A stretch of 64,000 nt of DNA from Escherichia coli (GCF_030013205.1 NZ_CP122648.1), one strand, 5' to 3'. Counted from the stretch's first letter, positions 3,324 to 4,178 are shown. Numbers and translations: made by a program. The notes: generated by a model from the letters alone, not told the origin.

Positions 3324-4178
3324 ATGTACATCATTTCAAGCAAAAACATGCTGAAAAAAGCCCAGTCAGAGGGATATGCCGTCCCTGCTTTCAACATTCA
3401 TAACCTTGAAACTTTACAGGTAGTTGTTGAGAGCGCTGCACAACTTCGCTCTCCCGTTATGCTGGCGGGAACACCGGGTACTTATCGTTATGGCGGCGTG
3501 GGAAGTTTAATTTCGTTAGTACAATCGCTGGCTCGCGAGTACAACCTGCCGTTAGTCCTGCATCTCGACCATCATGAAGAGAGTGATGACATTTTTAACA
3601 AGGTTCGCGCAGGGATTCGTTCTGTCATGATTGATGGCTCCCATTTGCCATTTGAAGACAACATTGCGCGAGTGCAAGAAGTTACCACCTTTTGCCATCG
3701 CTTTGATGTTAGCGTTGAGGCCGAGCTAGGGCGTCTTGGCGGCCAGGAGGACGATCTGCTGGTGGATGAAAAAGATTCAGCTTATACCTCACCAGCCGCA
3801 GCTGCAGAGTTTGTTCAACGTACCCAAATTGACTCCCTGGCGGTAGCAATCGGCACAGCACATGGTTTATATGCGCATGAACCACGACTGGATTTTGTGC
3901 GGCTGGAACAGATCCGTCAGCAAGTGGAGATTCCGCTGGTGTTGCATGGTGCTTCGGGCTTATCGGAACAGGACGTTCAGCACTGTATTCGCCGCGGTAT
4001 TTGTAAAGTAAATGTCGCGACAGAATTGAAAATTGCGTTTGCCGATGCGTTAAAAGGATATTTCTACAACAATCCTGCGGCAAATGATCCTCGCCACTAT
4101 ATGCAGCCCGCAAAGGCCGCCATGAAAGAAGTCGTAACTCGTATTATTGGCGTCTGTGGTAGTGAAGGAAAAATTTAA
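3324..4178 (+). CDS. class II (metal-dependent) ketose-bisphosphate aldolase, GatY/KbaY/FbaA-like
   Basis: 284-aa ORF with RBS AACAGGAG upstream. Sequence features (…[10 protein letters not shown]…, …LHLDHH…, …GTAHG…, …LVLHGASG…) are those of the tagatose/fructose-1,6-bisphosphate aldolase class II family. Confidence 0.8.

Follow-up and report, generated by a model that had tools for sequence, protein, structure and literature searches.

How does a GatY/KbaY-type class II aldolase serve an islet that encodes no GatZ/KbaZ-type partner, and on which substrate does it act? The locus that raises this question lies near the beginning of a 64,000-nt stretch of Escherichia coli DNA, which we refer to as the window. 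A preliminary description of the same DNA had already posed part of the question, proposing that the enzyme either works alone or borrows a partner from elsewhere on the chromosome, and that its partner status would constrain its substrate. We approached the problem through the gene content and chromosomal site of the islet, the family placement of the aldolase, the distribution of Z genes (gatZ or kbaZ) across related clusters, and the published genetics of a nearly identical locus.

The window comes from the E. coli chromosome, and over 11 kb it matches several pig ETEC strains at 100% identity. Using blastn of the K-12 accC-yhdT region, we found that homology stops at window positions 1091 and 9773. 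An insert of 8,681 bp (1092 to 9772) therefore lies between yhdT and accC, where it replaces a 108-bp spacer of K-12. Its GC content is 0.42 to 0.46, compared with about 0.52 to 0.55 in the flanks. The insert holds eight genes in the arrangement tagK-tagR diverging from tagYABCDE across a 341-bp intergenic region (Table 1). RefSeq gives these eight genes for the islet of ETEC1748, one of the 100%-identical strains, and none of them is a Z gene.

Table 1. Genes and regulatory elements of the islet, in window coordinates
Feature	Position	Strand	Description
tagK	1185–2120	−	second PfkB-family sugar kinase, predicted; 51% identical to tagD
tagR	2152–2982	−	DeoR/GlpR-family tagatose-responsive repressor; role shown in EcN (PMC12226905)
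Preg	3001–3028	−	promoter-like hexamers TTCAAA-16-TATAGT, for tagR-tagK; same hexamers named in PMC12226905
CRP-like site	3210–3225	+	TTCGA-N6-TCACG, upstream of Ptag; site described in PMC12226905
tagO1	3255–3273	+	predicted TagR operator; pattern search, 0 expected by chance; overlaps the tagY transcription start (about 3260)
tagO2	3279–3297	−	second predicted TagR operator; identical to EcN tagO2 in PMC12226905
Shine-Dalgarno of tagY	3314–3318	+	AGGAG, read in the sequence; 5-nt spacer to the ATG at 3324
tagY	3324–4178	+	class II (Zn) aldolase; intact ATG-start ORF, 284 codons + stop
tagA	4214–5104	+	periplasmic sugar-binding protein of ABC transporter; RbsB-like, below cut-off
tagB	5165–6664	+	sugar ABC transporter ATPase
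tagC	6665–7654	+	ABC transporter permease
tagD	7676–8638	+	D-tagatose kinase (tagatose to Tag6P); NCBIfam TagKinase 413.9 bits, cut-off 420
tagE	8635–9681	+	DUF4432 protein, annotated "aldose 1-epimerase family"; Pfam PF14486, E 3e-104

Several details of the annotation deserve mention. The longest open reading frames of some genes begin 5' of the RefSeq starts: tagA could be read from a TTG at 4208 instead of the ATG at 4214, tagB from a TTG at 5135 instead of 5165, and tagK from an ATG at 2195 instead of 2120, although this long form of tagK would overlap the 3' end of tagR. The tagD and tagE genes overlap by 4 nt (8635 to 8638). Outside the window, garL, encoding 2-dehydro-3-deoxyglucarate aldolase, is annotated as frameshifted in ETEC1748 (positions 20379 to 21154 of our locus L004).

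The islet is already known as the D-tagatose catabolic locus of E. coli Nissle 1917 (EcN) (PMC9720028; PMC12226905). Deletion of the six-gene EcN operon abolishes growth on tagatose, and a plasmid copy restores it (Ha et al. 2022, PMC9720028). D-tagatose induces the operon, which is required for use of this sugar and also enables K-12, B, and W strains to grow on it; the operon kinase and the host PfkA are both needed. In the same work, the route proposed for EcN runs from tagatose through tagatose-6-P (Tag6P) and tagatose bisphosphate (TBP) to DHAP and glyceraldehyde-3-P (G3P), and deletion of the EcN tagD orthologue prevented growth on tagatose (PMC9720028). The gene names that we use were given by Park et al. 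(2025, PMC12226905), and the published induction of the tag operon and tagY by tagatose, at this near-identical EcN locus, exceeds 1000-fold. Because the window has the same eight genes, in the same order, at the same chromosomal site, and with the same operator sequences as the EcN tag locus, the open reading frame at 3324 to 4178 is very likely tagY, the first gene of a TagR-repressed tagYABCDE operon, encoding a Zn-dependent class II TBP aldolase.

The regulatory region adds detail to this assignment. In EcN, the transcription start of tagY was mapped 64 nt upstream of the gene, TagR was identified as a tagatose-responsive repressor, and tagO1, tagO2, and the CRP site were predicted (Park et al. 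2025, PMC12226905). The tagO1 sequence of the window differs by one base from the published one. The CRP-like pattern is weak when taken alone, as it found a match in 18/100 shuffled sequences. About 85 bp upstream of tagO1, at 3152 to 3170, there is also a near-perfect palindrome, TTTCACTTGCAAAGTGAAA, which resembles the TagR half-sites (TTTCA...TGAAA) and is not part of the set reported by Park et al. (2025). We list it as a candidate, either for a third site of TagR or for a site involved in looping.

The aldolase itself belongs where the preliminary description had put it, near GatY and KbaY. Encoded by an intact reading frame, TagY is 64.3% identical to K-12 GatY and 56.7% identical to K-12 KbaY over the full length, compared with 37% for YdjI, 37% for Bacillus subtilis IolJ, and 25% for E. 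coli FbaA. Its closest solved structure is AgaY/KbaY (PDB 1GVF, E 6e-104). In profile searches, TagY scored above the cut-offs of the NCBIfam tagatose-bisphosphate aldolase equivalog TIGR01858 (477.6 bits against 443.55) and of the GatY subfamily NF009374 (529.7 against 383), and below that of the KbaY equivalog NF009375 (376.7 against 542). All 93 positions that are invariant in 27 GatY/KbaY-like sequences are kept in TagY. Among the 35 positions that are invariant also in FbaA, YdjI, and a distant Clostridia homologue are D82, H83, H180, and H208, which correspond to the catalytic Asp and the three Zn-ligand His of AgaY and are all present in TagY.

We also carried out the phylogenetic placement that the preliminary description had recommended, as a neighbor-joining (NJ) tree with Kimura-corrected p-distances and 300 bootstraps. 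TagY falls in a GatY/KbaY/TagY clade with 98% bootstrap support, not with fbaA as an ordinary duplicate would; IolJ, YdjI, and FbaA lie outside this clade, and IolJ forms its own clade at 100%. Branching within the GatY-like clade is poorly resolved, with deep supports of 20% to 50%. The IolJ references are database entries retrieved with a bait sequence, one of which (P0121) is 99% identical to the bait and carries the NCBI name IolJ. Judged by sequence, then, TagY is a member of the tagatose-bisphosphate aldolase clade with an intact active site.

Two other substrates have to be weighed against TBP. Class II TBP aldolases, such as AgaY, have some activity on FBP, and this would count toward reading TagY as an ordinary fbaA-like FBP aldolase duplicate that serves glycolysis or gluconeogenesis. 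The class II FBA models likewise gave significant scores, but TagY failed every FBA equivalog cut-off (TIGR01859, 312.9 against 343.05; NF009497, 315.7 against 423; TIGR01520, 89.7 against 347.7), while passing the tagatose-bisphosphate one. With the low identity to FbaA, the 98% support for placement in the TBP clade, and the regulation of the operon by tagatose (PMC9720028), we consider a plain fbaA duplicate highly improbable and rejected it on the grounds of the failed cut-offs, the FbaA identity, and the clade.

The second option makes TagY an aldolase of the IolJ type, or of another non-bisphosphate type, with a phospho-keto-deoxy acid as its substrate. TagY shares the PF01116 fold with IolJ, and IolJ, too, has no Z partner. 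We nevertheless find this scarcely credible, given that TagY is 64% identical to GatY and 37% to B. subtilis IolJ, that the IolJ clade is separate with full bootstrap support, that the islet contains no iol, dehydratase, or uronate genes, and that the operon responds to and is needed for D-tagatose (PMC9720028). The option was rejected on clade placement, identity, and the lack of an iol context. The same observations tell against the suggestion that partner status limits the substrate to a ketose bisphosphate or a phospho-keto-deoxy acid, as does the genetic demonstration that the operon catabolizes D-tagatose via Tag6P and TBP (PMC9720028). With both options rejected, TBP is the expected substrate of TagY. 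That TagY itself cleaves TBP to DHAP and G3P is something we infer from the genetic work on the EcN pathway (PMC9720028).

We therefore read the operon through the following proposed mechanism. The tagYABCDE genes would be part of a horizontally acquired D-tagatose islet at yhdT-accC. The TagABC transporter would import D-tagatose, TagD would phosphorylate it to Tag6P, host PfkA would convert Tag6P to TBP, and TagY would split TBP into DHAP and G3P. TagR would repress the operon at tagO1 and tagO2, and tagatose would raise its expression by more than 1000-fold. On this reading, the islet lacks GatZ/KbaZ because, in this family of clusters, Z is an optional and often-lost last gene instead of a fixed subunit gene.

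This last step draws on a comparative series. The preliminary description had seen no GatZ/KbaZ gene in the islet, and the absence extends to the whole 64-kb window, where tblastn with K-12 GatZ and KbaZ found no homologue (best E 0.21). The islet thus has no co-encoded Z partner (TIGR02810) of the kind that defines the heteromeric GatYZ/KbaYZ systems. Our comparative set consisted of 34 loci with relatives of the GatY-type aldolase, taken from one genome per species, with neighbors typed within ±10 kb. A Z gene lay within 10 kb of the aldolase in 7/34, and the other 27/34 had none within that distance, a ±10-kb count under which Z may still be present elsewhere in those genomes. A GatY-type aldolase without a neighboring Z gene is thus the common condition, and the earlier assumption that a Z subunit accompanies it as standard does not fit these counts.

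The loci could be sorted into classes by transporter type and terminal gene. Class A consists of ABC-type clusters at yhdT-accC in E. coli, Trabulsiella, two Enterobacter, and Superficieibacter; these have no Z and end in the DUF4432 gene (tagE) or in nothing, and they are monophyletic with 100% bootstrap in the NJ tree. Class B is the same ABC-type operon in Serratia sp. H1w (also at yhdT-accC) and Budvicia, with a bona fide gatZ as its last gene (762 bits against a cut-off of 579). Class C comprises the PTS-type tagKTH clusters with gatZ and gatABCD of Buttiauxella, Pseudocitrobacter, and Lelliottia, and class D the PTS-type tagKTH clusters of Erwinia endophytica, Zophobihabitans, Enterobacter sp. 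Ag1, and a Citrobacter, which have no Z. Loci with and without a linked Z gene intermingle in the PTS-type clade. Class E is made up of galactitol operons, with Z present in Serratia silvae and none in 14 Gilliamella. Outside these classes, distant relatives in a Selenomonadaceae MAG and a Clostridia MAG have no Z nearby.

Classes A to D have in common a head module, in which a divergent kinase-regulator pair faces the aldolase gene. What follows the head varies, and Z is an optional, evolutionarily labile terminal gene. Where it is present in the Serratia, Budvicia, and Buttiauxella clusters, it keeps every residue proposed for epimerase activity.

Two of these groups are of interest in their own right. 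In the 14 Gilliamella loci, which come from the bee gut, the GatY-type aldolase gene stands with gatC-gatD and a DeoR-like gene, gatZ is absent over ±10 kb, and each locus looks like a galactitol-type operon without a Z gene. Separately, an ABC-type cluster occupies the yhdT-accC site in E. coli, Trabulsiella, the two Enterobacter, Superficieibacter, and Serratia sp. H1w, with the site in Enterobacter sp. ENT03 called from the accC side only. The shared site points to an old insertion with differential loss, or to a site of recurrent integration, rather than to a recent, E. coli-specific acquisition.

Within E. coli, tagY occurs as a single copy in 1421/5426 complete genomes. Its nucleotide identity to the window is at least 99% in 40 of them, 95% to 99% in 1380, and 87.8% in one, a spread which shows that the islet exists as several diverged alleles in the species. 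At the protein level, the TagY of E69, the representative strain in GTDB, shows 94.7% identity. The window allele is a less common one that is found in pig ETEC and non-B2 strains and is about 98% identical in nucleotide sequence to the B2-type alleles. As already published, the islet enables growth on the food sweetener D-tagatose in about a quarter of sequenced E. coli, and among its carriers are Nissle 1917, a probiotic, and most B2/ExPEC strains. The single 87.8% tagY-like gene lies on a 66-kb plasmid-labelled contig (NZ_JBTZOT010000002.1, our L042; 6900 to 9855) beside gatZ, with degraded IS1 copies between the two genes and a zinc-binding dehydrogenase gene after them. This contig is a mobile-element mosaic in which the aldolase travels with a Z gene.

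Chromosomal Z genes are nearly universal in the species: kbaZ is present in 5314/5426 complete genomes (98%) and gatZ in 5003/5426 (92%), and in ETEC1748 the kbaZ-kbaY pair lies about 110 kb from the islet. The alternative set out at the start, between an enzyme that works alone and one with a chromosomal partner, is a valid one.

What such a partner would contribute depends on what Z proteins do. The 2002 study of Brinkkotter et al. is said to be the source both of the label "non-catalytic subunit/chaperone" and of the view that Z is needed for full activity, for which it is cited in PMC9720028 and PMC10101011. More recently, GatZ and KbaZ, which the preliminary description had called subunits, were reported to act themselves as Tag6P/F6P C4-epimerases (PMC11907403). 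Formation of Tag6P from F6P in E. coli requires gatZ, and kbaZ can restore it (Palur et al. 2025, PMC11907403), in line with the GatZ-family Tag6P epimerases that Agrobacterium and Sinorhizobium possess. There are two exits from Tag6P in this cluster family: Z-type epimerization to F6P, or phosphorylation and cleavage by PfkA and TagY. The alpha-proteobacteria have only the epimerization exit (PMC9720028), the E. coli islet encodes only the aldolase exit, and the Serratia and Budvicia clusters encode both.

On present evidence we lean toward TagY being a homo-oligomer that works without a stoichiometric Z partner. A GatY of Bacillus licheniformis is reported to be fully active alone (PMC10101011). 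BL21(DE3) could use tagatose through its endogenous KbaYZ only with an agaR mutation (PMC10101011), yet the six-gene tag operon alone was sufficient for tagatose growth of this strain (PMC9720028). Read across these two papers, the agaR requirement and the sufficiency of the operon suggest that TagY works while kbaZ is repressed. An alignment comparison found no residues that separate the Z-linked aldolases from the Z-less clade, and hence no sequence signature for or against autonomy. Against this view, the gat operon of K-12 is constitutively expressed, so that GatYZ could even have stood in for TagY in that host.

The competing explanation is that TagY is a TBP aldolase that needs KbaZ or GatZ in trans, as a stabilizing or activating partner like that of KbaY and GatY. 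A gatZ of the islet itself could then have been lost, since nearly every E. coli has another, as the genome counts above and the kbaZ gene of ETEC1748 would allow. The Serratia and Budvicia sister clusters, which are the closest ABC-type relatives outside the clade, keep gatZ in the operon, and purified E. coli GatY and KbaY are weak on TBP without Z (PMC10101011, citing Brinkkotter 2002). Moreover, all hosts in which the operon is known to work (EcN, K-12, B, and W) have gatZ, kbaZ, or both (PMC9720028). On the other side, tagY is induced more than 1000-fold by tagatose, whereas aga and gat respond to different inducers, and KbaYZ-based tagatose growth in BL21 came only with the agaR mutation (PMC10101011). 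Z-less loci are also the majority across species, the Z-linked and Z-less aldolases have no separating signature, and the chaperone role of Z comes from one 2002 study, against which stands its description as an epimerase (PMC11907403). We hold dependence on a partner in trans to be possible but unlikely.

A third view of the missing Z concerns the gene at the end of the operon. The slot that tagE fills, between the gene for the tagatose kinase and accC, is occupied by gatZ in Serratia sp. H1w (positions 15376 to 16695 of locus L012) and Budvicia, and is empty in Trabulsiella and Enterobacter sp. BIGb0383. TagE might have replaced GatZ functionally, either as a non-homologous stabilizer of TagY or as an epimerase or mutarotase for a sugar or sugar phosphate. 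Its position in the exact gatZ slot of Budvicia and of Serratia sp. H1w, in the latter at the same chromosomal site, agrees with this idea, as does the presence of a Tag6P epimerase gene there in the alpha- and beta-proteobacterial versions (PMC9720028). The Trabulsiella and Enterobacter sp. BIGb0383 operons, which have neither gatZ nor tagE, argue that the slot is dispensable, and TagE and GatZ have no sequence similarity. We thus regard a functional replacement as quite improbable.

An NCBIfam profile search with tagE gave no match, and a literature search for DUF4432 returned nothing relevant. Speculatively, TagE may be a tagatose pyranose/furanose mutarotase: 6-phosphorylation needs a free O6, which a 2-ketohexose lacks as a pyranose, and a mutarotase role would therefore make sense for tagatose. 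A broader evolutionary reading, which we rate as distinctly unlikely, is that the TagY lineage of E. coli, Trabulsiella, Enterobacter, and Superficieibacter (gatZ being still present in Serratia at yhdT-accC) is Z-independent and arose when the terminal gatZ was lost or swapped for tagE, with TagE bringing a new activity. That activity would be, for example, such a mutarotase or a non-homologous sugar-phosphate epimerase. If this were true, the basis of the Z dependence of GatY and KbaY would emerge from a comparison between TagY and GatY, and this would help settle whether GatZ and KbaZ are chaperones, subunits, or simply epimerases.

The second kinase gene, tagK, scores 346 bits with the TagKinase model, below the cut-off of 420. 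Together with tagR, it is conserved upstream of the aldolase in both ABC-type and PTS-type tagatose clusters of Enterobacterales. The six-gene plasmid with which PfkA dependence was established, pHCE-6, does not carry tagK. TagK is a candidate for the putative "missing" Tag6P 1-kinase.

Returning to TagY as an enzyme that may work without a stoichiometric partner, its value lies in being a natural GatY-type aldolase that is expressed without a co-regulated Z protein. It thereby offers a clean test of the role of GatZ and KbaZ, be it as true aldolase subunits, as chaperones, or chiefly as Tag6P/F6P epimerases. The comparative series, with gatZ, DUF4432, or nothing in the same slot, and ABC or PTS genes behind the same head, could guide that test.

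Among known systems, the closest is the EcN tag locus, whose TagY (ECOLIN_RS18695 / HW372_RS02445) is the product of the same gene in the same eight-gene yhdT-accC islet, with the same order and orientation and the same tagO1, tagO2, and CRP elements; the window differs in being the less common allele and in the single base of tagO1. E. coli GatY, from the heteromeric GatY-GatZ tagatose-bisphosphate aldolase 2 of gatYZABCD, has the same length, catalytic and Zn residues, and expected reaction as TagY. GatY has an adjacent gatZ, a galactitol PTS operon, and GatR, whereas TagY has no gatZ, an ABC-type tagatose operon, and TagR. KbaY/AgaY of the aga cluster, at 57% full-length identity, is the best solved relative (1GVF), but TagY falls below the KbaY cut-off, and there are neither kbaZ nor GalNAc/GalN genes near tagY. 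As a precedent for autonomy, the B. licheniformis enzyme is a GatY-family TBP aldolase that is reported to be fully active without Z (PMC10101011), though it is Gram-positive and PTS-linked.

Among tagatose clusters, the Klebsiella-type gatY-tagKTH-gatZ PTS clusters, which we saw in Buttiauxella, Pseudocitrobacter, Erwinia, Citrobacter, and Zophobihabitans, have the same head module and aldolases that are 68% to 73% identical to TagY. They use a fructose-family PTS and a 1-phosphofructokinase-like Tag1P kinase where the islet has an ABC transporter and a tagatose 6-kinase, and gatZ is present in some and absent from others. The ABC-type tagatose/galactitol clusters of Sinorhizobium meliloti and Agrobacterium tumefaciens have a homologous ABC transporter and tagatose kinase (PMC9720028). 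There, a GatZ/KbaZ-related Tag6P 4-epimerase leads to fructose-6-P and no aldolase is encoded; the E. coli islet shows the reverse, with the aldolase in place and the epimerase gene absent.
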